This document shows, in pieces, positions 19,978 to 44,865 of a stretch of 64,000 nt of DNA. The notes below the pieces were generated by a model. It ran no database searches. It was given only the letters and a program-made list of their open reading frames with translations, and had not been told where the DNA came from. The first letter of the stretch is position 1; every line of letters begins with the position of its first letter. This DNA is from Candidatus Dojkabacteria bacterium (GTDB lineage Bacteria; Patescibacteriota; Dojkabacteria; GCA-002793355): NCBI GenBank assembly GCA_030583825.1, contig CP129477.1, forward strand, positions 446,308 to 510,307. The letters run 5' to 3'. Position numbers and translations under genes: made by a program.

Positions 19978-20556
19978 ATGAAGTATTTAGGATTTCTTTT
20001 CAATATTTTAAATGGTTCTTTCTCCGTAATGGGCTTTTTCAAGCAAGTTATGATCGAAAGAAACATGATTTCCCACGCAAACAAAATTACCTCGGTAAAT
20101 ATCACGGCAATGAAGGTCTGGCTCGCTTGGGCAGCAGGAAACATTGTTCTTGGGGGAGTTCTTATCTTTTTTAGCAGCGGTATTCTGTTGGCATTTGCAG
20201 AGCTTATGGTTATTTGGAATATTGTCTCTGCAGTCTTAGCATTTCTGGGACTTCAGGTTGCAAAAAGTACAGCCGTAAAGCTTCTCGCTAACTTAAGCCC
20301 ATTGTCACTTATCCGTTATCTTCATTCTTTGGAGAAACTATTCGTATTTGGCGCAGGATTAGATATTGCATATTCGATTTTGGGAGTATATCTCATCGAA
20401 AAAGGAACAACCATTGAGAGCACAATGTGGGCAGGATTTGGAGCAGCAGTCATTGTCCAGGCAATGTTTTTACTCGGACTTGATAGCGTTCTCTATTTTC
20501 TTAACAGAAAGGCATCACGACAGGTATTCGCAGAGTTGGAAGAACCTGAAAACTAA
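19978..20556 (+). CDS. hypothetical polytopic membrane protein
   Basis: 192 aa, 4-5 TMs; start uncertain. Confidence 0.35.
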   Translation: MKYLGFLFNILNGSFSVMGFFKQVMIERNMISHANKITSVNITAMKVWLAWAAGNIVLGGVLIFFSSGILLAFAELMVIWNIVSAVLAFLGLQVAKSTAVKLLANLSPLSLIRYLHSLEKLFVFGAGLDIAYSILGVYLIEKGTTIESTMWAGFGAAVIVQAMFLLGLDSVLYFLNRKASRQVFAELEEPEN

Positions 20557-20597: not shown

Positions 20598-22022
20598 TTA
20601 TTGAAGAACAGCAAATGCACCAACTTTTGTGTTTATGATTGTTGTTGTTTCTCCGTTCACAACAGAAACCGAGACCAAGCCTTTGTTTTCAAGGGGGTAT
20701 TTTTGAGTTGCTTCCCGATCAGTAATATACGCGACGACGTTTGTTGCAGACGAAAAAAGTCCTCCATGAGCCAAGTCTGTTATCTTTTTAGATGAGTCTG
20801 CAGTTGCATAGTGAAGTGCTGTTTGTTTTGTTGTGGTATTAACGGTTGCGTAGATGTAGCCTATGTCAAAAACATTGTGAGCGAGATGAATTCGAACATC
20901 ATTATTAGCAATTTCTCTCGACTGTCTCAATGGAATATCAACTTGCATTACTTTTTTATCAGCAGTGTAAATATAGGCCTCGTCCGAAACAAAGGAACCT
21001 TCCAGTGCAGGGTAGGTATGTTTTGCAGTTTTGGAGCCAGCATCATCAAATATTGCAACAGTTTCATGGTTTGTAAGATCGTCGGCAAATGTTGTCACGT
21101 ACATTACGTATTTTCCTGATTTTGTGTATGAAAGCGTAAATCTATCCGTGAAAGTTTCTTCTCGTGGGGAAGTACTTGGATAAGTCATAAGCACTGTTTT
21201 CTGGCCATCAAAGGCAAAGTATCCTGCCACTGTTTCTCCAAATACGTCTAAAGCAAGAAATCCCATTCTTTCTCCATTTGGAGACCAATCGAGAGCAAGT
21301 TTTTGAACAAGCGGCAACGTATATTCCTGCCCGGTCGTTCTTTTTATCATGTTAAAGGTTCTTATTTTGCATTCCGACTCGCAGAAAGCATAGGTAATTT
21401 CCTCAGTATTTCTCCATGCAACTGCATGAATTTTCGAATATGCATCTAGCATTGGAACAACTTTTGCTTCTGCTGTGCCAGTTACAGAATTAGCATAGAT
21501 TCCATCTTCTTTAACATAAAGCACCGCAAGAGGTATTGTCCCGGAGGTATCTGTATTGTTTCCTGACGGAGCGGGAGTAGGAGTTACCGACGTCTCCTGG
21601 TTTACAGCACGCGAAAACATTCCCAGTTGAGTAATATCTACGCCAAGCTGCTTGAGGACGAATTGAACAAGGAAATATGCCGAAATAGCCACGATAAGAC
21701 CGATGATAACATTCATGATTGCGGATTGAGCTTCTTTTGTTTTGCCGGCATCGCCGCCACTTGTTATATACTTTAACCCTGCAAGAACGAGGTAAAACAC
21801 GGAAGCAATCACAACAATAATAAGAAGAAGGTCAAGAAAACTGCTAATGATTTCAAAAAACTCAATATTTTGCAGGTATTTGGTATTTTTTATGTCCGGG
21901 ATACTGAAATTTAACCCCGATTGTGCGTACATCATTAAGACATTGTAAGGGTTTTTGGGGATGGATGCAAAAAGGATAAAAAGAGAAAGTATTTGTTTCA
22001 GAAATACACCTTCTAGTTTCAC
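20598..22022 (-). CDS. TrbC/VirB2-like pilin module fused to PT linker and ~330-aa extracellular domain
   Basis: Residues ~60-130 (LLIIVVIASVFYLVLAGLKYITSGGDAGKTKEAQSAIMNVIIGLIVAISAYFLVQFVLKQLG) are near-identical in pattern to the pilin-like protein at 30137..30517; then TPTPAPSGNNTDTSGT linker and a large beta-rich domain. Confidence 0.55.
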   Translation of the reverse strand: MKLEGVFLKQILSLFILFASIPKNPYNVLMMYAQSGLNFSIPDIKNTKYLQNIEFFEIISSFLDLLLIIVVIASVFYLVLAGLKYITSGGDAGKTKEAQSAIMNVIIGLIVAISAYFLVQFVLKQLGVDITQLGMFSRAVNQETSVTPTPAPSGNNTDTSGTIPLAVLYVKEDGIYANSVTGTAEAKVVPMLDAYSKIHAVAWRNTEEITYAFCESECKIRTFNMIKRTTGQEYTLPLVQKLALDWSPNGERMGFLALDVFGETVAGYFAFDGQKTVLMTYPSTSPREETFTDRFTLSYTKSGKYVMYVTTFADDLTNHETVAIFDDAGSKTAKHTYPALEGSFVSDEAYIYTADKKVMQVDIPLRQSREIANNDVRIHLAHNVFDIGYIYATVNTTTKQTALHYATADSSKKITDLAHGGLFSSATNVVAYITDREATQKYPLENKGLVSVSVVNGETTTIINTKVGAFAVLQ

Positions 22023-22168
22023 TCATAAAAAGGTAGAGAGGGATGGCACTCCGTTACTGTCGCTTTTTATTGAAATTCCTATTGTAAAGCTCCAGAGCGA
22101 ACCTTTTCTTTTAGAAAGGTTACACTCCTAATATCTTTCCGCGCTAATCACCTTTCAGGTGACCACCA

Positions 22169-22258
22169 CGGAAAGAGAGGGATTCGAACCCTCGATACCC
22201 AAAATTTAGGTATAACGGTTTAGCAAACCGTCGCCTTCAGCCACTCGGCCACCTTTCC
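22169..22258 (-). tRNA. tRNA-Ser(GCU)
   Basis: Minus-strand cloverleaf: acceptor GGAAAGG/TCTTTCC, anticodon arm ACGGT-TTGCTAA-ACCGT (anticodon GCT), long variable arm, T-arm GAGGG-TTCGAAT-CCCTC, discriminator G. CCA not encoded. Confidence 0.85.
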
Positions 22259-22297
22259 AAGGGCAAGAAGCCCTTTCGGGCTTCTTAAAAAAACTTG

Positions 22298-22799: not shown

Positions 22800-23150
22800 C
22801 TAGGTCGTTGGCAACGTGCCTGGCAAGTCTACATCGAAGACTCCAAGAATGAACCCCGCAATCGCGAATGCAGCAAGGACAACGATAAGTCCAATAATTG
22901 CGTTAATTATAAGTTGTTGTGCTGATTGAAGTTCACGAGGATCACCGCGAGACATGATAAATTTGTATCCACCGTAAATAATCATTCCTACGCCGACAAC
23001 GATAATAAGAGAAATTGCTGCAGTAAAAAGTCCTCGAACTGCTGCATCGCCACCACTAGGGCTAAGAAAACCTGCAGTTGGGCCAACTGTTCCAATAACA
23101 TCTACTGTATAACCAAAGGCTCGTGTAAGGATACTTCCCATCATGTTCAA
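22800..23150 (-). CDS. TrbC/VirB2-like pilin-family protein (tandem copy 3)
   Basis: Two hydrophobic helices flanking IYGGYKFIMSRGDPRELQSAQQLIINAIIGLIVV; same module as 23157, 23484, 30137, 30647 and 20598. Confidence 0.6.
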   Translation of the reverse strand: MNMMGSILTRAFGYTVDVIGTVGPTAGFLSPSGGDAAVRGLFTAAISLIIVVGVGMIIYGGYKFIMSRGDPRELQSAQQLIINAIIGLIVVLAAFAIAGFILGVFDVDLPGTLPTT

Positions 23151-23156
23151 CTCTTC

Positions 23157-23462
23157 TTATGTTATGGCATTTATAATAATCGCACGAATAACAAACGCAA
23201 ACAGTACTATTGCAATACCAATAACGGCATTAACGATAATACCTCGAGCTTGTTCTACTTTCTTTGGATCGCCCTGGCTCATCATGTAAGTATATCCGCC
23301 ATAAACAATCAATCCAACAAAAAGAATCGAAAGCAAAGGAAGAACAACGCCAAGAGCGTTGGTTACAAGATCACCGATTGTTCCTGGTGCTCCAGGAGCT
23401 GGAGTAATTTGGCTCAAATCTATAGTTGCGCCTGCGTTTAAACTTGGAAGACGATTTGTCAT
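23157..23462 (-). CDS. TrbC/VirB2-like pilin-family protein (tandem copy 2)
   Basis: LIVYGGYTYMMSQGDPKKVEQARGIIVNAVIGIAIVLFAF; 6-nt gap to next copy. Confidence 0.6.
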   Translation of the reverse strand: MTNRLPSLNAGATIDLSQITPAPGAPGTIGDLVTNALGVVLPLLSILFVGLIVYGGYTYMMSQGDPKKVEQARGIIVNAVIGIAIVLFAFVIRAIIINAIT

Positions 23463-23483
23463 GACCTATTATACAGAAAAGTC

Positions 23484-23909
23484 CTAGCTAATGCCAAGTG
23501 TGCTGAAAACCATGGAAATAATTGCTGTTGCGGTTAAAATCAGTCCAAAACCGAGTAAAGCATTCATTATTTGTTCTTTACCATCTTGAATCTTTTTTGA
23601 TTCTCCGCCACTCATCATAACTTTGTATGCACCAATAACAACAAGTACTAATGCAACGAGGGCACCAACAACGCCAGCTGCGGCTGCAATTTGTGTAACA
23701 AATCCAACACCACCGGTACTTGTATCAAAACAAATTCCAAAGTCGAATTCAATACCGCTACATCCACCGGCGGAAACTGTATATTGAGGAAGAGTCCGGC
23801 CTGTAATAGTTGAAACTAAGCCCGGAAGTGCCTGAGAAACCACTCTCCCCACTGTAGTAAATGATTCTGGCATACTTTGTATTATACCATTTGCTATCCC
23901 TATTTTCAT
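23484..23909 (-). CDS. TrbC/VirB2-like pilin-family protein (tandem copy 1, longer N-region)
   Basis: VIGAYKVMMSGGESKKIQDGKEQIMNALLGFGLILTATAI; 2-nt gap to upstream methyltransferase. Confidence 0.55.
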   Translation of the reverse strand: MKIGIANGIIQSMPESFTTVGRVVSQALPGLVSTITGRTLPQYTVSAGGCSGIEFDFGICFDTSTGGVGFVTQIAAAAGVVGALVALVLVVIGAYKVMMSGGESKKIQDGKEQIMNALLGFGLILTATAIISMVFSTLGIS

Positions 23910-27758: not shown

Positions 27759-28366
27759 ATTCTCATCCTTAATCTAAATTACTATTGAGTAATTGTATCA
27801 CACTTATCCCTTTCTTTTGTTCTTAAGTTATTCATTATTTAATTGTTTCTTTTTTTAAGATGAAAGATAAATGAGCTACCCACATCTTAGTGTTATATAT
27901 CTATTTATAAAAATAGAAGTATTAATAGAGAGTGTGGGTAAGTGGAAGAGAGTAAAGAAAAAGTCCAGATCGCTGAATTAAAATAAACTATTTTTTCTGT
28001 CGGTAATTTGTGGATAAGTGTGGAGGAGCACTTTTAGTATTGTGGGGTTTGCTCTGAATGGTTCTTTGGAATTTTGTAAAAGATTGCTCTCTCTACCGGA
28101 ATTCCCGCAATAAACATAAAAAGTATGCTTATCAACAAGTTGTGAATACTTTACCAATAGGTTTCCATATCACTGCTTGTGTTATACACATGTTATCCAC
28201 AAAATGTAAAAGAGTCCCCAAGTTATGAAGAAAACATTCAACTTTTCTTTTTGCGCAAATTTGTACTATAGGAAAAGCATTTTATATATGCCACTAAATC
28301 TGAAGTATTTTTTCTGATACGTAAGGAAAAATTTTTGCGTGAAATCTTTTTTGCAATAGAGAAAGT
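27759..28366. promoter_or_regulatory. candidate chromosomal origin (oriC): DnaA-box cluster plus AT-rich unwinding tract upstream of dnaN
   Basis: 608-bp non-coding, very AT-rich (27781-27930). DnaA-box-like 9-mers: TGTGGGTAA 27933-27941, TGTGGATAA 28009-28017 (perfect), TTATCAACA 28127-28135, TTATACACA 28182-28190, TTATCCACA 28193-28201 (perfect), in both orientations. Confidence 0.5.
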
Positions 28367-30136: not shown

Positions 30137-30517
30137 ATGAAAAAATTTCTCGCAACAGTAGGAACAGCAATTGCCTATGTCAGCATGATCCCATCTACTT
30201 ATGCTGCGACAAACTGGGCACCAACGCAAATTGGAGACGCAAGTGTTGGCGAAATTATTCAAAATGTTTTGAACATTCTTTTGATTATTGTTGTTATTGC
30301 AGCAGTTATCTATATTACTCTTGCAGGTTTGAAATATGTAACCAGCCAGGGTGATGCAGGAAAAGCAAAAGAAGCACAAGCAGCAATCACTAACGCAATT
30401 ATTGGTTTAGTTGTTGCATTCGCAGCATACTTTGTTGTTACTTTCGTCCTTGCACAGCTCGGATTGAATGTAGAAGACTTCGATGTCGAATCAGTAGCTC
30501 GCGCACTGATTGCATAG
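30137..30517 (+). CDS. TrbC/VirB2-like pilin-family protein with signal peptide
   Basis: ATG at 30137 (MKKFLATVGTAIAYVSMIPSTYA|ATN). IAAVIYITLAGLKYVTSQGDAGKAKEAQAAITNAIIGLVVAFAAYF. The ORF-track 29807 start is an antisense extension into metG. Confidence 0.65.
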   Translation: MKKFLATVGTAIAYVSMIPSTYAATNWAPTQIGDASVGEIIQNVLNILLIIVVIAAVIYITLAGLKYVTSQGDAGKAKEAQAAITNAIIGLVVAFAAYFVVTFVLAQLGLNVEDFDVESVARALIA

Positions 30518-30576: not shown

Positions 30577-30646
30577 TAAATTTTTCACCGCGATTGTATT
30601 GTGCGGCGATAATGTGTAATAAAAAAAGACGTGCTATAATTTCGCT

Positions 30647-30982
30647 ATGATAAATGCAATTGCCAAGAATCTTCCAACACTTCTCGCAATTAATGCGGGC
30701 CAAGTTATGCAGGGTACCCAAGAACCTCCATCACTTGCAGGCATAATTGCTTTGTTTATTACCCTTTTTAATACATTTGCTTTTACACTTGCACCGATTG
30801 TTATCATCGTTATGATTGTGTATTCAGGAGCCCAGCGAATGATGGGTGGCGATAATCCTGGCAAAGTAGCAGAAGCAAATGCTCGTCTTATGTGGACAGT
30901 CATTGGTGCAGTGTTGCTTTACTTAAGCGTGCTGCTTGTAAACCTTGTTGCCAGCACAGTTGGTGTCGCAACTCCTTTTTAG
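30647..30982 (+). CDS. TrbC/VirB2-like pilin-family protein
   Basis: IVMIVYSGAQRMMGGDNPGKVAEANARLMWTVIGAVLLYLSVLLV; same two-helix module. Confidence 0.55.
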   Translation: MINAIAKNLPTLLAINAGQVMQGTQEPPSLAGIIALFITLFNTFAFTLAPIVIIVMIVYSGAQRMMGGDNPGKVAEANARLMWTVIGAVLLYLSVLLVNLVASTVGVATPF

Positions 30983-31261: not shown

Positions 31262-33517
31262 ATGAATGTATTGACTGCCCGTCGTACAACATTGTCTTTT
31301 CTCCTGAGCATTATTATATCCGGTATCATTATTGCTTCTATTCTTGTATTACACGGAGCATTTTCTAATACTGCATTTGCGCAAACTGAAGCAGAGATCC
31401 AGGCAGAGAAAAATCAAAAACAGAAAGAACTAAATGGTGTCATTGCAGAAATTAACTCGATTGTTGCATCACGTAACTCTCTTAGCACGAAAATTAAAGA
31501 GCTTCAGGCAGAAAAAACAAAGCTTGAAAACCTTGTGGCTGAAATGAATAAAGACCTCGCAGAAGCAGCAGAACAACTAAAACAGCAGGAAAAAGATCTT
31601 GAAACACTTTCTCAACAGTATGCTCTAAACCACGCTCTCTACTATTTGGAAACTAAGAAAAATGCGGGTGTAGTATTGTTTGAATCACGTGATTTGCGTG
31701 ATTTTCTCGACAGAATGCTATATTTTTCGGTACAAGACAAAGTGATTGCCACTCAAAAAGAATATATCGTTGCAAAGCAGGATGGACTCAAAAACCAAAA
31801 AGGAAATATTGAAGAAGAACAAAAAAAGCTTCAGGAAACAATCGAAGATGTAAATCTGAAACTTTCACAGCTATATTCTGAGCAGGAAGCATTGAATGCA
31901 AAATATAGTCAGTCATTGTCGGCAAGAAGAATGCTAACAAGCGATCTTTCAAATCTCTCCAAAAAAGAGCAGGAAATTCTTAACCAAAAAGCGCAGTCAA
32001 CTGCACCTTCGGGGAACTCAGGCTCATCGGGATCTTCCGGGTCATCGAGTGGGAGTGGAACAACAACAAATCCCGGCACAGTTATTACAACAAGAGGAAT
32101 TGATATTTTTGTCGGCAGCGAGCGAATTGCCAGCACAGATGCTGAAGTAAAAGTTCGAGCAAAAAATAACGGAAGTGTCCTTCTTAACAAAAGCTGTGGA
32201 GGATGTATGGCTCCGGAAATTGCTTACCAGGGATTTCTTGTATTTGATAAATCAAAGCGCCGCACATTCACTGGGGTAGAAGGAACAAAAACGGTAAACG
32301 TAATTAATGACATTAGCGTTGAACAGTATCTTCGAGGACTTGGAGAAATGCCTGCATACTGGGGAAGAAATGAAAAAGGTGGAATCGAAGCACTAAAAGC
32401 TCAGGTGGTTGCAGCACGAACATATGCCTATCGGAAAATGGAGAACTATAAAGGCATTGGCTTTGATTTATATGACACGACTGACGATCAAAACTATGTT
32501 GGTGTGAATAAAGTCGCAACCGGCGATGGTCAGCATTGGGATAGAGCAATCAATGAAACAATTAATATGGCAATCGTTGCAGGAGGAGTTCCTATTTCAG
32601 CATTTTATTCATCTAGTGCAGGTGGACACACAATTGCAACTGAAGAATCTTCAAGCTTTGGTAGTGTTACTTCTTACGCAAAAGCTGTTCCGGACAGATA
32701 CCAAACAAGCGAAGGAAACTGGAGAGACTATGGAGAAAATGTTCCAGATGAGCCAGGAACAGCAGAAACCTCATACTGGCTTCCTTCAGGCAACCGTGCG
32801 CTGAGTCCTGCAGAAGTTACTGAACTTTTGAATGTCGCTATTTTTCTTGATCCAGAAGCAGATGGAACACTTATTTCTGCTAGTCAGCGATACCGTGTGA
32901 CAGACCCTTCAAGCTCAGGATATCTGAATGCTCAGGCTCTTGCTGACCATCTTGGGCCAAATTCAGTACAAAGCAAAGTAGGAACATTAACGTCGGTAAA
33001 ACATGTCTATAATACTGGTGACCAGACTATTCAGCAGGGAACTAAAAATACTCGTTATTTGGAACTAACTGGAGATAAAGGGACAATGCGAATTAGCGGT
33101 CAGGCGTTTAGAACAGGGTACAACTTCCGATCTCCGGGAACAAATGTTATTTGGTCGTCTGCGAATTTACCGCTGTACGATGTCGTTCAGAAAGCAAATT
33201 GTAATGTCGGAGGGACTAATCATTCTCCATGTTGGGAATTTTGGTCACGCGGATATGGACACCGAGTAGGAATGAGCCAGTATGGCGCATATGGAAGAGC
33301 TCGCGCAGGACAGGACTACAGAACAATCCTGAAAGCTTACTATACTAACGTAGATATAGTACAATACTCAATCGGAAGGAATGTAAAAGTTGCAATTACG
33401 AAAGGTGGAAGCACTCAGTCATATATGAAATCTTCTCAGGAGATTGAAATTTATGAAGGAGGAAACCTTATCAGAACAGTTCCTGCCAATACGACAATTA
33501 AAATTGCTTACAACTAA
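31262..33517 (+). CDS. SpoIID/LytB-domain protein with N-terminal TM and coiled coil
   Basis: VEQYLRGLGEMPAYWGRNEKGGIEALKAQVVAARTYAYRKM...DLYDTTDDQNYVG and SRGYGHRVGMSQYGAYGRA match SpoIID/LytB motifs; residues 40-240 heptad-rich; Ser/Gly linker. Confidence 0.65.
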   Translation: MNVLTARRTTLSFLLSIIISGIIIASILVLHGAFSNTAFAQTEAEIQAEKNQKQKELNGVIAEINSIVASRNSLSTKIKELQAEKTKLENLVAEMNKDLAEAAEQLKQQEKDLETLSQQYALNHALYYLETKKNAGVVLFESRDLRDFLDRMLYFSVQDKVIATQKEYIVAKQDGLKNQKGNIEEEQKKLQETIEDVNLKLSQLYSEQEALNAKYSQSLSARRMLTSDLSNLSKKEQEILNQKAQSTAPSGNSGSSGSSGSSSGSGTTTNPGTVITTRGIDIFVGSERIASTDAEVKVRAKNNGSVLLNKSCGGCMAPEIAYQGFLVFDKSKRRTFTGVEGTKTVNVINDISVEQYLRGLGEMPAYWGRNEKGGIEALKAQVVAARTYAYRKMENYKGIGFDLYDTTDDQNYVGVNKVATGDGQHWDRAINETINMAIVAGGVPISAFYSSSAGGHTIATEESSSFGSVTSYAKAVPDRYQTSEGNWRDYGENVPDEPGTAETSYWLPSGNRALSPAEVTELLNVAIFLDPEADGTLISASQRYRVTDPSSSGYLNAQALADHLGPNSVQSKVGTLTSVKHVYNTGDQTIQQGTKNTRYLELTGDKGTMRISGQAFRTGYNFRSPGTNVIWSSANLPLYDVVQKANCNVGGTNHSPCWEFWSRGYGHRVGMSQYGAYGRARAGQDYRTILKAYYTNVDIVQYSIGRNVKVAITKGGSTQSYMKSSQEIEIYEGGNLIRTVPANTTIKIAYN

Positions 33518-34380: not shown

Positions 34381-37269
34381 ATGAATGTGCCCTTTCTTGT
34401 TAAACAATATTTGTCGGAAGACTTAGAACAAGGATCGTTTTCAAAAATCTTTTGGTATTTCCCGTTAAAGCGTGATATGGCGGCCCTTGGCGGCATTGGT
34501 ATGTTTTTTGAGGTGCTCTATGGCGATGTAGATTACGAAGTATACGAACAGATTTCAAAACGTTTTTGGGATACTTTTAGCGAAAATTTCTATACGTTCG
34601 AGTTTGAGCAGGCACTACGAAAATCAATCCAGGCCTTTACGCAATTATTGCGTGGTTTCGGTGTAGAAGAAGGTCTCGATGTAAATATCGTACTTTTTAA
34701 TGCTCGCAAAGAAGACAACTCTTACATATTGAGAATTGTGTCCTTTGGTGAGTCTGATATGTACGTTGTTCGCGGAGGAAAGCTTGCAGACATTTCAAAA
34801 TCAGTGCCGCAAAACAAAACACTCCGTGATATTAAATTTTTGGAAGTTGACCTTGAAGAGAGTGATATTCTTCTTTTGGGAAACAAAACATTGCTGCACA
34901 ATGCATTTGAGTCAGATATTATTGCGCTAGACTCAATGGATGCAGTGCTTCAATCAATGAGCCAATTCAAGGATAATCTTTTTGGAAACAAAAAAGTGTT
35001 TCTTGTCGCAGCGTTAGATAGTGATTCGGCAAAAGAAAAGGAATCTGTAGACGAAGAAGATTCGGCCACATCGCCATTAGCAGGTGTATTGGGTGGAGTT
35101 TCAGCATTTTTTGGTAAGACGGCAACTTCTGTCAAAGATCTGACAAGTAAGTTCCAGACAAGGTTTGGTAAGAAAGATTCTGTTGAGATGGATGCGTTAG
35201 AGCAACTGACAGAAGCAACTCAAAAGCTTCCTGAAGGCATGCCTCTTGCGACAGAGATGAGTCAGCCACAGTTGCCAAAGCGCGATGGCCAACAGTTACG
35301 ACAAGATGATTCTGTCCCGCTTATTAAACCTCCTGCAGATGTGGAAAATGAGAGTGTTGACGATGAATTACCTGTAGGCTCTGCTTCGAAGCAAGAAAAC
35401 GAGTCTATTTTAGAGCCTGTTGCACCGGTTACTTCTCAGCCAAAAGAAGCAGAAGAAATTACCAAGCCAATCGGCAAAGGAATGCCAATGATGCCACCTG
35501 AAGTGCAAGATCGTCCTGAATTGATTATTGCCTCGGAGCAGCAAACTGAAGAAAAAATTGCCGAAATTACATCACCTCAAGAGCCAAAAGGTGTGGAAGA
35601 GAGTTCTCCTGAGACCGAAACAAAAGAAGTTCCAATTATTATGCCGACACCTCCTCAGAAGGAAGATGATGGTATCGAAGCATTGCCAAGTTATCCTTCT
35701 GACATAGATATTGAGCCAGAATTAGAAGTTCCTGCAGCAACTATTTCAGAGAAAAAACCATTAATTCAAACACCAAGTATCCCTGAAGTAGACGATGAAC
35801 CTCCAACGATGAATACGCCGCGTGCTGATGAATTTCGTCCGTATTCAACAACCGTTATTCCCCAAAAGCCTGCAGGAAGTGCAGCCGCAGATTTTCGTAA
35901 CAGACGGTCTCCAACATACAAGCTGGCGGGTGGATTACTTGCAAAAGTTATGCCATTTTTGTCCGGTGCAAAGCAAAAGGTGAGTGAACTGCTTTCGAAA
36001 GTCACAGGAGGGCGATTTAAAGTAGGCAAAATTTTTGTTGGTCAGTCACCAAAAGATAAAAAGGTCATGTATATTGGTATTGGGATTTTTATTCTCGTTG
36101 TGTTCGGGCTTGTATTGTATATTCGGGGACAGTTTGTTCAAGCAGGAAAAGAACGCGATGCACTTGCACAATACGATGCTGCAGTAAATCCATTGCAATC
36201 ATTTTATGATACAAATATCGCGAGTATTACGGTGGAAGATCCAGGTAGGTATTTAGACAAATGTTTCTTAGAGATTTCAACAGCAGAGTCGAAGATTCAG
36301 CAAATTCCTGACGTTATCAAGTCAGAAGACAGTAAGATAAAGCGTGAAGAAAAGGCTGGAAAGTTAGCACAAATAAAAGAGAACTGTACGACAAAGTATG
36401 ACAAGATCAATGGCATTGTTCGCGTTAAAACGGCAAATTTGATTACCGACTTTAGAGTATCTCTTGGCAGTGATGCAGACCCTATAGATATGGCAATTAA
36501 GGGTGGATCGCTTGTTGTTGCAGATAAAGGAAGAAAAGCGATTTATCAGGTGAATCCTGCAAATTCCAGTATTATGAAACTTGAAGATCCTTCAGGACTT
36601 ATTACTGATCCTGTAAGTGTTGGAACCGGCGAAGACATTGTGTTTGCCTGTGATAAAAACAGCGGAGTGGTGTATACAGATACGCAGGAAGGTTTCCGCA
36701 GAATTGTAGGATTGGAGCCTGGAGCCGTGGGAGAATGTTCAATTGTGAAAGGATTCGGTAAGAATGTCTACGTTATCCCAAGCACAAAAGACAGAGTGTT
36801 GCGTTCATTGTACCAAAGCAATGCGTATCAACAACCAACTCGATATATTGACGGCCTTGCAGACGTTCGCGATGTGGTTATTGATGGAAATATCTATATA
36901 GTGTCGGGTGGCGTAGAAAAAGCTGAGGTCTGGAAATTCTTTTCGGGCCGACGAGATACATTTTCACTCGAAGACTCTATCGAAATAGGAAATGCCACAA
37001 GTGCCTACACAAATCCTTCTGATACATACAATATTTATGTGTATGACAAAACAAAGAATCAGGTTATTGGAGTAGAAAAAGCAACTGCGCGTCGTCATCC
37101 GGGAATTGGAACTCAGGCAAGAACGTTTATTTTCGAAAATGCACAGATGTTCAATGATGTCCGAGACATCGTTGTTGACCTCCGTGACGCTCGGGAAGTA
37201 TATATGTATGTGTTAAATGGCTCAACCATTTGGCAGGTTTCGGTTCCTCGTGTAGAGACGGGAGAATAA
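34381..37269 (+). CDS. large bitopic protein: degenerate PP2C-like N-domain, acidic disordered region, TM, extracellular C-domain
   Basis: 962 aa. N-domain has PP2C-like blocks (MAALGGIGMFF; FGESDMYVVRGGKL; DILLLGNKTLLHNA) without the metal-binding Asp residues. E/P/D-rich ~300 aa. TM IGIGIFILVVFGLVLYI. Then ~400 aa beta-rich. Confidence 0.5.
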   Translation: MNVPFLVKQYLSEDLEQGSFSKIFWYFPLKRDMAALGGIGMFFEVLYGDVDYEVYEQISKRFWDTFSENFYTFEFEQALRKSIQAFTQLLRGFGVEEGLDVNIVLFNARKEDNSYILRIVSFGESDMYVVRGGKLADISKSVPQNKTLRDIKFLEVDLEESDILLLGNKTLLHNAFESDIIALDSMDAVLQSMSQFKDNLFGNKKVFLVAALDSDSAKEKESVDEEDSATSPLAGVLGGVSAFFGKTATSVKDLTSKFQTRFGKKDSVEMDALEQLTEATQKLPEGMPLATEMSQPQLPKRDGQQLRQDDSVPLIKPPADVENESVDDELPVGSASKQENESILEPVAPVTSQPKEAEEITKPIGKGMPMMPPEVQDRPELIIASEQQTEEKIAEITSPQEPKGVEESSPETETKEVPIIMPTPPQKEDDGIEALPSYPSDIDIEPELEVPAATISEKKPLIQTPSIPEVDDEPPTMNTPRADEFRPYSTTVIPQKPAGSAAADFRNRRSPTYKLAGGLLAKVMPFLSGAKQKVSELLSKVTGGRFKVGKIFVGQSPKDKKVMYIGIGIFILVVFGLVLYIRGQFVQAGKERDALAQYDAAVNPLQSFYDTNIASITVEDPGRYLDKCFLEISTAESKIQQIPDVIKSEDSKIKREEKAGKLAQIKENCTTKYDKINGIVRVKTANLITDFRVSLGSDADPIDMAIKGGSLVVADKGRKAIYQVNPANSSIMKLEDPSGLITDPVSVGTGEDIVFACDKNSGVVYTDTQEGFRRIVGLEPGAVGECSIVKGFGKNVYVIPSTKDRVLRSLYQSNAYQQPTRYIDGLADVRDVVIDGNIYIVSGGVEKAEVWKFFSGRRDTFSLEDSIEIGNATSAYTNPSDTYNIYVYDKTKNQVIGVEKATARRHPGIGTQARTFIFENAQMFNDVRDIVVDLRDAREVYMYVLNGSTIWQVSVPRVETGE

Positions 37270-41524: not shown

Positions 41525-43984
41525 ATGATATACTTTGAGCAGATGACTGCCTCTTATTTAGTCGCACAACTGGGAACAAACGTATCACGATCGGCTGGGA
41601 CTTCAGGCAATTCCGACATATTTGTCACAATCATTTTTGTTATTATTTTCGTTTTAGCACTGCTTATTGCTGGTTTATTAACCTATTTATTGGCAAAAAA
41701 CGTACAAAACAAAGATCGTGAGGAAAAATCCTTACACTACACCATTTTTATTGTCAGAATGGCTCATGGAAATGAATCGCAGATTAAAGCAGCAGAGCAA
41801 ATGTTCAGCAGTTTGTATGGAATTTACGAAAAGAAGGGCATTATTGATCAAATGACGAAGGCCGACGAGGGGCTTTCTTTTGAAATTATTGCGTATCCAG
41901 AGCATATTGGCTTTTACGTATATGTCCCAGAAAGATTTGCACAACTTGCAGAAAAACAAATTCTTGGAGCATATCAAGATGCCGAAGTATTGCAGGTTCC
42001 AGAGCCAAACTTTTTTAAGGAGGGAGCGTCAGTTGTGAGTGGAACATTCGAAATTACCGACGAGCAATATCTTCCTGTAAAAACATATGCAGACTATGAA
42101 GAAAAAGCCGATCCTCTGACTTCAATCACAGGAGCATTCGCAAATATGATTGACGGTGAAGGTGGAGCATTGCAAGTGTTAATAACTCCGGCAGGTTCAG
42201 ACTGGTCATCGAGTGGGCAGAAATATATTCAAAAGATTAATGAGCATAATAACGATCCTGAAAAAAAGAATAAAATCACTGTTCCACAGGAGAAAATCCA
42301 GGCAATTCAGAAAAAGACAGCAAAAGTAGGATTCAAAGTAAATATTCGTGCCGTAATGTGTGCAGATACTCAAGACATGGCAATGGCACGATTAAATACA
42401 CTTGCAGGGTCAATTTCACAGCTTGCAAATCCGGGTCTAAACGGGTTCAAGTTCAAAAAGGTCGAAGGAAACGGGCTTCGTGAGTTTATGAACGACTTTG
42501 TCTATCGCCGAGTGTCTCCAACCAAAACGGTTTTGAATGTTGAAGAGCTTGCGACGATTTATCACTTTCCAAACCAGAATACGCAAACACCGAATATTGA
42601 ATGGCTTATTGCACGAAAAGCTGCTCCTCCTCCAAACTTACCGAAAGCTGGGTTGTGGGTTGGTGCATCTGCATACCGAGGCATTAATCGTGATGTATTT
42701 ATGGGTGATGACGACCGTCGCCGTCACACATACATTATTGGACAAACCGGTACAGGTAAATCATGGTTCTTAGCAAATATGATTTTGCAAGACATTTATA
42801 TGGGCAAAGGACTTGCATTGCTTGATCCTCACGGTGCAACAGTTGAGCAAGTTCTTGAGCGCATTCCTCCTGAAAGAGCCGAAGATGTCATTTATTTTAA
42901 CCCTGCAGATGTACAACGTCCGTTTGGAATGAACTATATAGAATTCCGCAACGAATACGAAAAGCACGAAATTGTGAACGGATTTCTTGGCTTGATGAAA
43001 AAGATGTTCGATCCGCACGATCAGGGTATTGTAGGCCCGCGATTTGAGCGTGCTGTACGAAATGCCATGCTTACGGTTATGGCAGAGCAGGGAAATACAT
43101 TGGTTGAAGTGTTGCGGTGTATCGCAGACGAGCAATTTGCTTTGTCATTCATGGATAAAATTGATGACGACGAAGTCCGAAACTATTGGCTGAAAGAAAT
43201 GGCCTCGACCGAGAAAAAAGATAAATCTGAAATTCTTGGATGGCTTACGTCAAAGTTTGACCGTTTTGTTACAAATATTTTAATTCGCCACATTATTGGG
43301 CAGAGTGAGTCATCGTTTAACTTCCGCCAGGTGATGGATAATAAGAAAATTTTGCTCGTAAACTTGTCGAAAGGTTTGATCGGCGAAGAAAACGCTCAAT
43401 TCTTGGGCTTGCTAGTTATTCCAAAGATTTTACGCGCAGCGCTCAGCCGCGAAGATATTCATGAATCCGAGCGTCAAGACTTTTACTTGTACGTTGACGA
43501 GTTTCAAAACTTTGCGACAGAAGACTTTGCGCAGATTTTGTCTGAAGCACGTAAATACCGCCTGAATCTTATAGTCGCGAACCAGTATATTCAGCAGATG
43601 TCTGAAAAGATCCGCAATGCGGTCTTTGGTAACGTTGGTACATTGGTCAGTTTCCGCGTTGGCGCAGGTGATGCAGAGTATCTTTCCAAAGAATTCGCCC
43701 CGGTATTTGAGGATCAGGACTTGATTAAGCTCGAAAACGCAAATGTGTACATAAAAACATTGATTAATGGTGTTGCAATGCCGCCATTCTCGATGAGCAC
43801 ATTTTATAACATTAATGAGCGCTATCCAAAGCACGAAAGAGTAGGCGATTTGATTAAGCAGTTGTCACGAACAAGATATGGCCGTGATGAGCAATATGTA
43901 AAAGAAGCTATCAAAATGAGGGCAGCCCGACCGGAAGTAGCAAAGCCTGCCCAACCGGCAATGAAACCTCCGCTTGTTTTCTAA
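41525..43984 (+). CDS. VirD4/TrwB/TraD-like type IV coupling protein (membrane-anchored FtsK-HerA-superfamily ATPase)
   Basis: N-terminal TM; HTYIIGQTGTGKSWFLANMILQDIYMGKGLALLDPHGATVEQ...VIYFNPADVQRPFGMNYIEFRNEYE parallels TrwB GATGTGKS...IVDPNGD...ILNPYDQRT...FFNEIRNDYD; Walker B YLYVDEFQNF; RKYRLNLIVANQYIQQ (RK...Q sensor). SD GGGGGAAAT before ATG. Confidence 0.6.
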   Translation: MIYFEQMTASYLVAQLGTNVSRSAGTSGNSDIFVTIIFVIIFVLALLIAGLLTYLLAKNVQNKDREEKSLHYTIFIVRMAHGNESQIKAAEQMFSSLYGIYEKKGIIDQMTKADEGLSFEIIAYPEHIGFYVYVPERFAQLAEKQILGAYQDAEVLQVPEPNFFKEGASVVSGTFEITDEQYLPVKTYADYEEKADPLTSITGAFANMIDGEGGALQVLITPAGSDWSSSGQKYIQKINEHNNDPEKKNKITVPQEKIQAIQKKTAKVGFKVNIRAVMCADTQDMAMARLNTLAGSISQLANPGLNGFKFKKVEGNGLREFMNDFVYRRVSPTKTVLNVEELATIYHFPNQNTQTPNIEWLIARKAAPPPNLPKAGLWVGASAYRGINRDVFMGDDDRRRHTYIIGQTGTGKSWFLANMILQDIYMGKGLALLDPHGATVEQVLERIPPERAEDVIYFNPADVQRPFGMNYIEFRNEYEKHEIVNGFLGLMKKMFDPHDQGIVGPRFERAVRNAMLTVMAEQGNTLVEVLRCIADEQFALSFMDKIDDDEVRNYWLKEMASTEKKDKSEILGWLTSKFDRFVTNILIRHIIGQSESSFNFRQVMDNKKILLVNLSKGLIGEENAQFLGLLVIPKILRAALSREDIHESERQDFYLYVDEFQNFATEDFAQILSEARKYRLNLIVANQYIQQMSEKIRNAVFGNVGTLVSFRVGAGDAEYLSKEFAPVFEDQDLIKLENANVYIKTLINGVAMPPFSMSTFYNINERYPKHERVGDLIKQLSRTRYGRDEQYVKEAIKMRAARPEVAKPAQPAMKPPLVF

Positions 43985-44754: not shown

Positions 44755-44826
44755 GGGCGTATAGCTCAGTGGTAGAGCACTGTTCTTATAAAGCAGCGGT
44801 CCATGGTTCGATCCCATGTACGCCCA
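44755..44826 (+). tRNA. tRNA with anticodon UAU (nominally Ile, decodes AUA)
   Basis: Acceptor GGGCGTA/TACGCCC, D-arm GCTC-AGTGGTA-GAGC, anticodon arm CTGTT-CTTATAA-AGCAG (TAT at 44787-44789), T-arm CATGG-TTCGATC-CCATG, discriminator A. Confidence 0.8.
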
Positions 44827-44865
44827 CTATCTTGTGTTTTTATCGAATTTAGGACTATAATTGTC

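Follow-up and report, generated by a model that had tools for sequence, protein, structure and literature searches.

We analysed a 64,000-nt stretch (the window; 64 kb) of contig CP129477.1 from a Candidatus Dojkabacteria genome, a representative of the monoderm Patescibacteria (PMC12857230). On its reverse strand, between a tRNA-Ser gene and a convergent gene for a DUF6992 membrane protein, lies a gene encoding a 445-aa protein in which a VirB2-like pilin module of a type IV secretion system (T4SS) is fused to a predicted beta-propeller. The same window holds five short pilin paralogs and a VirD4-like coupling protein (Table 1). Here we describe the gene, its orthologues and the relatives of its two halves, and weigh what such a protein may do at the cell surface.

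The pilin–propeller gene

The N-terminal module matches the Pfam family T4SS_pilin (PF18895) at 40.5 bits against a gathering score of 26.6 (E 2.9e-10; residues 55-122 in the numbering of a 474-aa open reading frame (ORF), all other residue numbers being those of the 445-aa protein), and the more distant of two orthologues, P0003, does so at 36.2 bits. A sequence-only reading of this stretch had proposed a complete pilin module, closest to the gene at 30137, followed by a Thr/Pro linker and a large beta-rich domain, and each of these elements was borne out. BLASTP aligned the fusion with the 30137 product at 63% identity over 83 aa (E 1.8e-32), with 70% identity in a 67-aa core; identity to the other four paralogs in the window was 21-35%. 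The alignment extends without a gap at the junction to the very end of the short pilin, whose C-terminal tail corresponds to QLGVDITQLGMFSR in the fusion, and the junction therefore follows a complete pilin including this tail. Next comes the disordered Thr/Pro linker (TPTPAPSGNNTDTSGT) of about 35 residues.

A full-length AlphaFold2 (AF2) model from a 9-row alignment had a mean predicted local distance difference test score (pLDDT) of 74.8. It contains hairpin helices at residues 24-58 and 63-96 around an SGGD turn (pLDDT ~80), a disordered stretch at residues 102-134 (pLDDT 30-38) and an all-beta region at residues 137-445. Modelled alone, the C-terminal domain reached a pLDDT of 76 and a predicted template modelling score (pTM) of 0.77; its 28 predicted strands correspond to seven blades of four strands each, and a 7-bladed beta-propeller is predicted for the C-terminal ~310 aa. 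Foldseek searches of the PDB agreed, in that all matches were propellers, more than 1300 of them at E <= 0.001, so that of the two folds suggested beforehand (beta-propeller and lectin) the former was recovered. The best matches were 2bkl and 3iun (prolyl endopeptidase) and the TolB structures 1c5k and 1crz, with E ~3e-9 and TM-scores of 0.53-0.64. Sequence identity in these fold matches was 8-13% and the WD40 protein G-beta scored equally well, such that the modelled match indicates a fold class and no specific family. The fusion itself gave no significant match to a Pfam propeller family. Its propeller carries a PD40-like 'WSPNG' motif, and no catalytic domain follows, the protein ending with the propeller at residue 445.

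The length of the protein depends on its start codon. An uninterrupted frame runs over 20598..22022 of the reverse strand and gives the 474 aa of the ORF list, and of the sequence-only reading, if read from a GTG. This is too long, as the true start is almost certainly the ATG at 21935, where the matching start is used in the NCBI and JGI gene calls and in both orthologues (P0002 and P0003); the NCBI entry for the identical protein, encoded on a contig of 1.09 Mb, is labelled 'MAG: pilin [Candidatus Dojkabacteria bacterium]' (MAG, metagenome-assembled genome). The 29 additional codons encode a hydrophobic, signal-peptide-like segment found in the window genome only. This extension has no counterpart in L001, the locus of P0002, and in L054, a locus of P0003, an in-frame TAA situated 9 nt upstream of the fusion ATG excludes it. 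We consider that the extension is probably not translated and rejected the GTG start. Read from the ATG, the protein begins MMYAQS and has neither a signal peptide nor a hydrophobic leader.

A -10 hexamer (TACAAT or TATAAT) is positioned 5-6 nt before the fusion ATG at all three loci (window, L001 and L054), with TGTTACAAT-GCCTT-ATG in L001 and TGTATAAT-GTCTT-ATG in L054 at the same place as in the window. A hexamer this close to the start codon implies a leaderless transcript, and on these sequence grounds the fusion mRNA is probably leaderless. The short pilin gene at 30647 also has an extended -10 element (TGCTATAAT) 6 nt before its ATG (30620-30649; compare 21935-21947), and leaderless starts may be common in this genome. 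The notion that a leaderless start marks low expression relative to a major pilin was dropped because this paralog is arranged alike.

Table 1. Positions of the fusion gene, its parts and associated genes in the window
Feature	Position	Strand	Evidence or remark
Whole gene, 445-aa pilin-propeller fusion	20598..21935	-	Stop codon 20598-20600; ORF and start evidence
N-terminal tail, aa 1-33	21837..21935	-	Predicted outside; poorly conserved; pLDDT 30-52
Pilin core (PF18895), aa 34-100, a hairpin of two helices around an SGGD loop	21636..21836	-	Pfam, AF2
Pilin C-terminal tail and disordered Thr/Pro/Ser linker, aa 101-136	21528..21635	-	pLDDT 30-38
Predicted 7-bladed beta-propeller, aa 137-445	20601..21527	-	AF2, Foldseek
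CxxxC (Cys185, Cys189) in propeller	21369..21383	-	Codons read directly; invariant in alignment
In-frame upstream extension, 29 codons from GTG	21936..22022	-	Not conserved in L001; blocked by TAA in L054
Promoter-like site, TTTGCA-18 nt-TACAAT	21942..21971	-	-10 hexamer ends 6 nt before ATG
DUF6992 membrane protein	19978..20556	+	PF22503 75.5 bits; convergent with the fusion in each of the three genomes
Tandem array of three short pilins (22800-23150, 23157-23462, 23484-23909)	22800..23909	-	PF18895 33.9-35.8 bits each; syntenic in L001
Short pilin nearest to the fusion (126 aa; signal peptide), candidate major pilin	30137..30517	+	PF18895
Short pilin paralog, 111 aa	30647..30982	+	PF18895 38.1 bits
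VirD4-like type IV coupling protein	41525..43984	+	PF02534 41.1 bits, TrwB_AAD_bind, TraG-D_C

Orthologues, propeller relatives and placement of the domain

The same fusion, whose presence in related genomes had been posed as a check on the sequence-only reading, was found twice: P0002 (60% identity; JGI metagenome 3300037311, locus L001) and P0003 (28% overall identity; loci L054 and L055). Each of the three proteins has a length of exactly 445 aa and the same architecture. Locus L001 is fully syntenic with the window (three-pilin array, DUF4870 gene, fusion, DUF6992, NifU, DnaG and more), and the order at the P0003 locus is fusion, DUF6992, NifU, a hypothetical gene, DnaG and WecG. This identity of length, architecture and synteny in three genomes demonstrates that the fusion is a genuine single gene and an old one. 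The DUF6992 gene overlaps the 3' end of the fusion by 4 nt in both L001 and L054. The fusion forms three 50%-identity clusters among 1.84 billion representatives, and a scan of contigs of GTDB species representatives with the three fusions as query returned pilin modules only and no further propeller fusion.

Conservation along the protein is uneven. Identities to P0002 and P0003 were 85% and 66% in the pilin core, 57% and 23% in the propeller, 44% and 25% in the linker and 45% and 7% in the N-tail. When set beside the neighbouring genes over the P0003 distance (L054; DnaG 51%, WecG 51%, NifU 42%, DUF6992 31%), the hairpin ranks as the best conserved and the propeller as the worst conserved segment of the locus. 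The loop motif SGGDxxK(T/S)xEA is kept in the fusions, and their cores group together (66% identity between fusions versus 55% to the 30137 product), indicating that this module has been a distinct lineage since before the divergence of the three genomes. The 30137 product has a signal peptide (MKKFLATVGTAIAYVSMIPSTYA/ATN) and a core with 99% identity between its window and L001 copies; the gene has a promoter (TTGACC-17-TATAAT) and a strong terminator of its own. The conserved core, near-consensus promoter and dedicated terminator lead us to regard it as the probable major pilin, with the fusion an old derivative that has been maintained separately.

An exhaustive phmmer search of the 1.84 billion representatives detected 17 relatives of the propeller, comprising the two pilin-fused orthologues, a larger, unrelated repeat protein (P0013) and 14 single-pass proteins in which a cytoplasmic N-tail, a single transmembrane helix and a linker that is acidic or of low complexity precede the domain. 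Most of the latter are ~400-470 aa in length (P0017 is a 269-aa fragment) and their anchors cannot be aligned with one another. The distant relatives derive from this search alone, since word-indexed searches with the whole protein, the C-terminal domain and a 15-sequence profile retrieved only P0001, P0002, P0006 and P0019. Two relatives pass the DPPIV_N gathering score (30.0 and 27.0 bits versus 22) and others match WD40-type propeller models weakly. In a 15-sequence alignment the CxxxC cysteines and the Trp of the 'WSP' motif are invariant, and Cys185 and Cys189 probably form a hairpin disulfide. The P0006 locus, the sole relative locus examined, has no pilin gene nearby, and for this reason the propeller family is not intrinsically tied to the T4SS.

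Every line of evidence points to a propeller outside the cytoplasm, namely the N-in/C-out anchors of its relatives, the invariant Cys pair, the Thr/Pro linker and the topology of VirB2 and TraA. Extracytoplasmic disulfides are plausible in this group because genomes of the Candidate Phyla Radiation are reportedly enriched in MdbA-like disulfide oxidoreductases (PMC6744442). Both pilin termini face outward in the F pilus, a filament 87 Å wide (PMC5018250), and with a VirB2-like topology the C-terminal domain would point outward both in the membrane pool and in a filament. A cytoplasmic enzyme domain, the outcome that was to have undone the sequence-only reading, is unlikely given that there is no catalytic domain, that the Cys pair is invariant and that the relatives are anchored with the N-terminus in and the domain out.

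Genomic setting and other extended pilins

All six pilin-module genes of the window lie within ~8 kb of a putative replication origin. Five DnaA-box-like sites at 27933-28201 fall within the dnaN-metG spacer (27759-28366) and include two of the three perfect TTATCCACA matches in the window, and the cumulative GC-skew minimum is located at ~30-32 kb, near this cluster adjoining dnaN; oriC is probably in this spacer. An origin-proximal placement of T4SS genes in Patescibacteria has been published (PMC12102498).

Upstream of the fusion, a ~130-nt element (22036-22167, reverse strand) occupies the interval to the tRNA-Ser(GCU) gene (22168-22259), downstream of which it lies, and is conserved in L001 (9640-9775). 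It has a multi-hairpin consensus of -35 kcal/mol in which 5/35 pairs are preserved by changes on both sides. No Rfam family matches it credibly, and the 278 bp upstream of the L054 fusion lack it. It may represent an undescribed small RNA. Beyond the pilin pair, a gene for a 751-aa coiled-coil and SpoIID-domain protein (31262-33517), which adjoins the pair in L001, lies just upstream of a 962-aa ORF without a Pfam match (34381-37269, forward strand). In the product of the latter, a globular N-terminal part is followed by a long low-complexity region rich in acidic residues and Pro, one transmembrane helix and a C-terminal region that looks beta-rich by eye. ARAGORN identified a tRNA-Ile with anticodon UAU at 44755-44827 (forward strand); such a tRNA is uncommon in bacteria, where AUA is usually read by a lysidine-modified CAU tRNA.

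Large additions to the pilin module are a wider phenomenon. An ad-hoc hidden Markov model of the module was scanned over 52 Patescibacteria loci from GTDB species representatives and detected 247 ORFs with a median length of 135 aa, of which 13 (~5%) have extensions of at least 150 aa, three C-terminal and ten N-terminal; Pfam confirmed the module in several of these. The sequence-only reading had judged a globular domain covalently attached to a VirB2-type pilin to be unusual. The attachment to a VirB2-like module stands, and its singularity is reduced by these 13 cases. The largest example (L036:9544-16230, from Patescibacteria MAG H43-bin239_1) is at least 2229 aa long and runs off the locus; it has a signal peptide, and its pilin module, at the N-terminus, precedes TIG, Big_5 and DUF4215 domains. 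Its neighbour (L036:7572-9251, 559 aa) joins TrbC-like to Big_5 domains. Both resemble adhesins built on the pilin module.

The pilin module is instead found at the extreme C-terminus in L039 (896 aa), L042 (824 aa) and L044 (509 aa), and the N-extended proteins start with clear signal peptides, which fits an outward-facing N-terminus. A subfamily with this reverse arrangement (L039:1923-4613, L042:2123-4597, L044:5902-7431, L018:6312-7505, L038:5948-6835 and others) consists of a signal peptide, an N-terminal region of 200-800 aa with no match in the families scanned and the pilin module, ending with a conserved VIGVDIL.(L/I)PGF motif. A further variant, from a Candidatus Paceibacterota MAG (L045:1480-2745; JAYWGL010000056.1), is a 421-aa ORF with a signal peptide and four tandem PF18895 modules (120 bits), a covalent 'poly-pilin'. 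The propeller fusion is thus a lineage-restricted case of a wider, rarer habit of placing extracytoplasmic domains on either end of the module. We found no description of such modular VirB2-type pilins in the Patescibacteria T4SS literature or under modular pilin and VirB2, within a partial coverage of journals.

Proposed function, alternatives and known systems

Our preferred, tentative reading, to which we assign a probability of roughly 0.45, is that the fusion is a minor or tip pilin displaying a binding propeller on a T4SS pilus. The 445-aa protein would insert into the cytoplasmic membrane through its VirB2-like hairpin, with the Lys-rich SGGD loop facing the cytoplasm and both termini outward, and the flexible linker of ~35 residues would hold the propeller outside the cell. 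From the closeness of the hairpin to that of the probable major pilin we infer uptake by the T4SS and co-assembly with the short pilins, which the shared interfaces (the core being 70% identical) make plausible. Incorporation would be sparse or restricted to the first (tip) layer, and the propeller would serve on the filament surface as an adhesin for a host-cell or envelope ligand. In favour of a pilin, the hairpin is conserved far beyond the needs of an anchor. No other segment of the neighbourhood evolves as fast as the propeller, as expected of a surface or host-contact domain.

Several observations weigh against this reading. In the 64-kb window we recognised no VirB4 gene (among the large ORFs) and neither VirB3 nor VirB6, the VirD4-like gene, 20 kb from the fusion, being the sole T4SS machinery gene recognised. 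The fusion has no signal peptide, unlike its closest paralog at 30137. As the fold matches are generic, no ligand can be named for the propeller. We estimate that an F-like lattice of 87 Å diameter, with a layer rise of ~12.5 Å, offers ~700 Å2 of outer surface per subunit, as compared with a propeller ~45-50 Å across, a footprint which makes a homopolymer unlikely. One pentameric layer at the tip would fit, as would sparse incorporation among short pilins, and the 35-residue flexible linker would help. The propeller is also workable without a pilus, as seen in the single-pass relatives and the pilin-free P0006 locus. Finally, no Patescibacterium has been seen to carry a T4SS pilus (PMC12857230).

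Some of these observations lend themselves to another explanation, the main rival and only somewhat less probable, in which the hairpin has been co-opted as a two-helix membrane anchor for a resident surface propeller that shares the envelope or binding task of its single-pass relatives and neither leaves the membrane nor enters a filament. The 14 of 17 propeller relatives with a plain single-pass anchor before the same domain, the one locus examined among them without a pilin gene, the steric awkwardness of a bulky domain on every subunit and the absence of a T4SS machinery gene adjoining the fusion would all be accounted for. Plain anchors, however, evolve freely, yet this hairpin retains 66% identity over a distance at which DnaG retains 51% and the propeller 23%, and it preserves the cytoplasmic loop motif of the pilin family. 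An anchor would also leave unexplained the repeated occurrence of large domains at either end of the module in other lineages.

Alternatively, the pilin module may be an export handle, with the propeller released, or delivered to a host as cargo, once the linker is cleaved by a protease or the T4SS extracts the hairpin from the membrane as it does with pilins. The long, disordered linker (pLDDT 30-38) would suit this explanation, and C-terminal processing is known for the TrbC and VirB2 pilins of Gram-negative bacteria. Patescibacteria T4SSs mostly lack relaxases and are suspected of moving proteins (PMC10633639; PMC12102498). We regard such a carrier role as improbable because no cleavage motif was identified, conservation of the linker is poor (44% and 25%), no precedent is known for a T4SS cargo fused to a pilin and nothing in the data singles this role out. 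That a pilin gene and a secreted-propeller gene were merely joined by a frameshift, sequencing error or mis-assembly, a concern attached to the sequence-only reading for which we found nothing beyond the metagenomic origin of the assembly, is hardly credible when an unbroken frame of 445 codons is shared by three independent assemblies (identities 60% and 28%) whose synteny is conserved, and the junction aligns gap-free to the full C-terminal tail of a short pilin.

A broader and more doubtful proposition is that T4SS pilins of Patescibacteria constitute a modular display platform, in which paralogs of the major pilin bearing host-binding domains (the propeller in this genome; arrays of TIG, Big_5 and Cys-rich domains, among others, elsewhere) on either outward terminus co-assemble into the essential T4SS filament. 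Were this so, the platform would supply the tip or adhesin function of VirB5 and PrgB and help to set which host each epibiont attaches to or feeds from. The T4SS and its pilin array are essential in the one genetically tractable Patescibacterium, and both the role of the T4SS and its ability to build a pilus have been called completely unknown (PMC11665869; PMC12857230); no adhesin has been linked to a Patescibacteria T4SS (PMC12102498). As a pilin paralog to which a folded extracellular domain that evolves fast is attached, the fusion is a specific candidate for the host-contact part. As an epitope or purification tag, the propeller also offers an experimental handle on the exit of these pilins from the membrane and their assembly into a filament, and since similar fusions with other domains exist across the phylum, the idea could be examined by comparing fused domains with host range.

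Amongst known pilins, the N-terminal 100 residues of the fusion are a bona fide member of the VirB2-like family of Patescibacteria (PF18895), which includes the essential array of Southlakia epibionticum ML1. The location of the gene beside divergent short-paralog arrays near the replication origin accords with the description for the phylum (PMC12102498). The described pilins are small, single-module proteins (about 90-180 aa), and the fusion departs from them in its 445 aa, its globular domain after the module and its lack of a signal peptide. It resembles VirB2, TraA and TrbC in having a two-helix hydrophobic hairpin with a short basic loop, and differs from them in lacking a cleavable leader and in its monoderm host organism. 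The TrbC family (PF04956) is matched, weakly to well, by some relatives of the module (13.6 bits in P0003 and 55.9 bits in L045), and the fusion itself gave no PF04956 match at E up to 0.1. A sequence search of the PDB with a profile built from 13 pilin modules yielded no solved pilin. No VirB2-type pilin fused to a folded domain is known to us.

The resemblance to TolB is confined to the propeller. The fusion has no TolB N-terminal alpha/beta domain, a pilin hairpin preceding the propeller instead, and TolB has a six-bladed propeller as opposed to the seven blades implied here. TolB is a partner of Pal in diderm envelopes, whereas the fusion occurs in a monoderm, and we rejected orthology on the basis of domain content and envelope type. 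Similarly, dipeptidyl peptidase IV and prolyl oligopeptidases combine a propeller with an alpha/beta-hydrolase, and the fusion contains no hydrolase or peptidase domain.

The closest analogy is provided by the modular pilins of type IV pili, such as PilB and PilC of Streptococcus sanguinis, in which a binding domain on the exposed end turns a minor subunit into a filament adhesin. This is an analogy only, as the fold and the machine are unrelated: pilins of type IV pili combine a class III signal peptide with one hydrophobic helix at the N-terminus, and the fusion has a two-helix hairpin and no prepilin-peptidase motif. In classical T4SSs, VirB5 forms the pilus tip and is the main adhesin (PMC12624023). 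VirB5 is a separate helical subunit and PrgB a cell-wall-anchored adhesin; the fusion has no relation to them in sequence or fold. Surveys of Patescibacteria report VirB2-like arrays but no PrgB-type adhesin, and VirB5 in one genome only, together with a Gram-negative-type system (PMC12102498), which leaves the adhesin or tip role unfilled. The role proposed for the fusion, contact with a target cell by a surface structure of the T4SS, is like that of VirB5 and PrgB.

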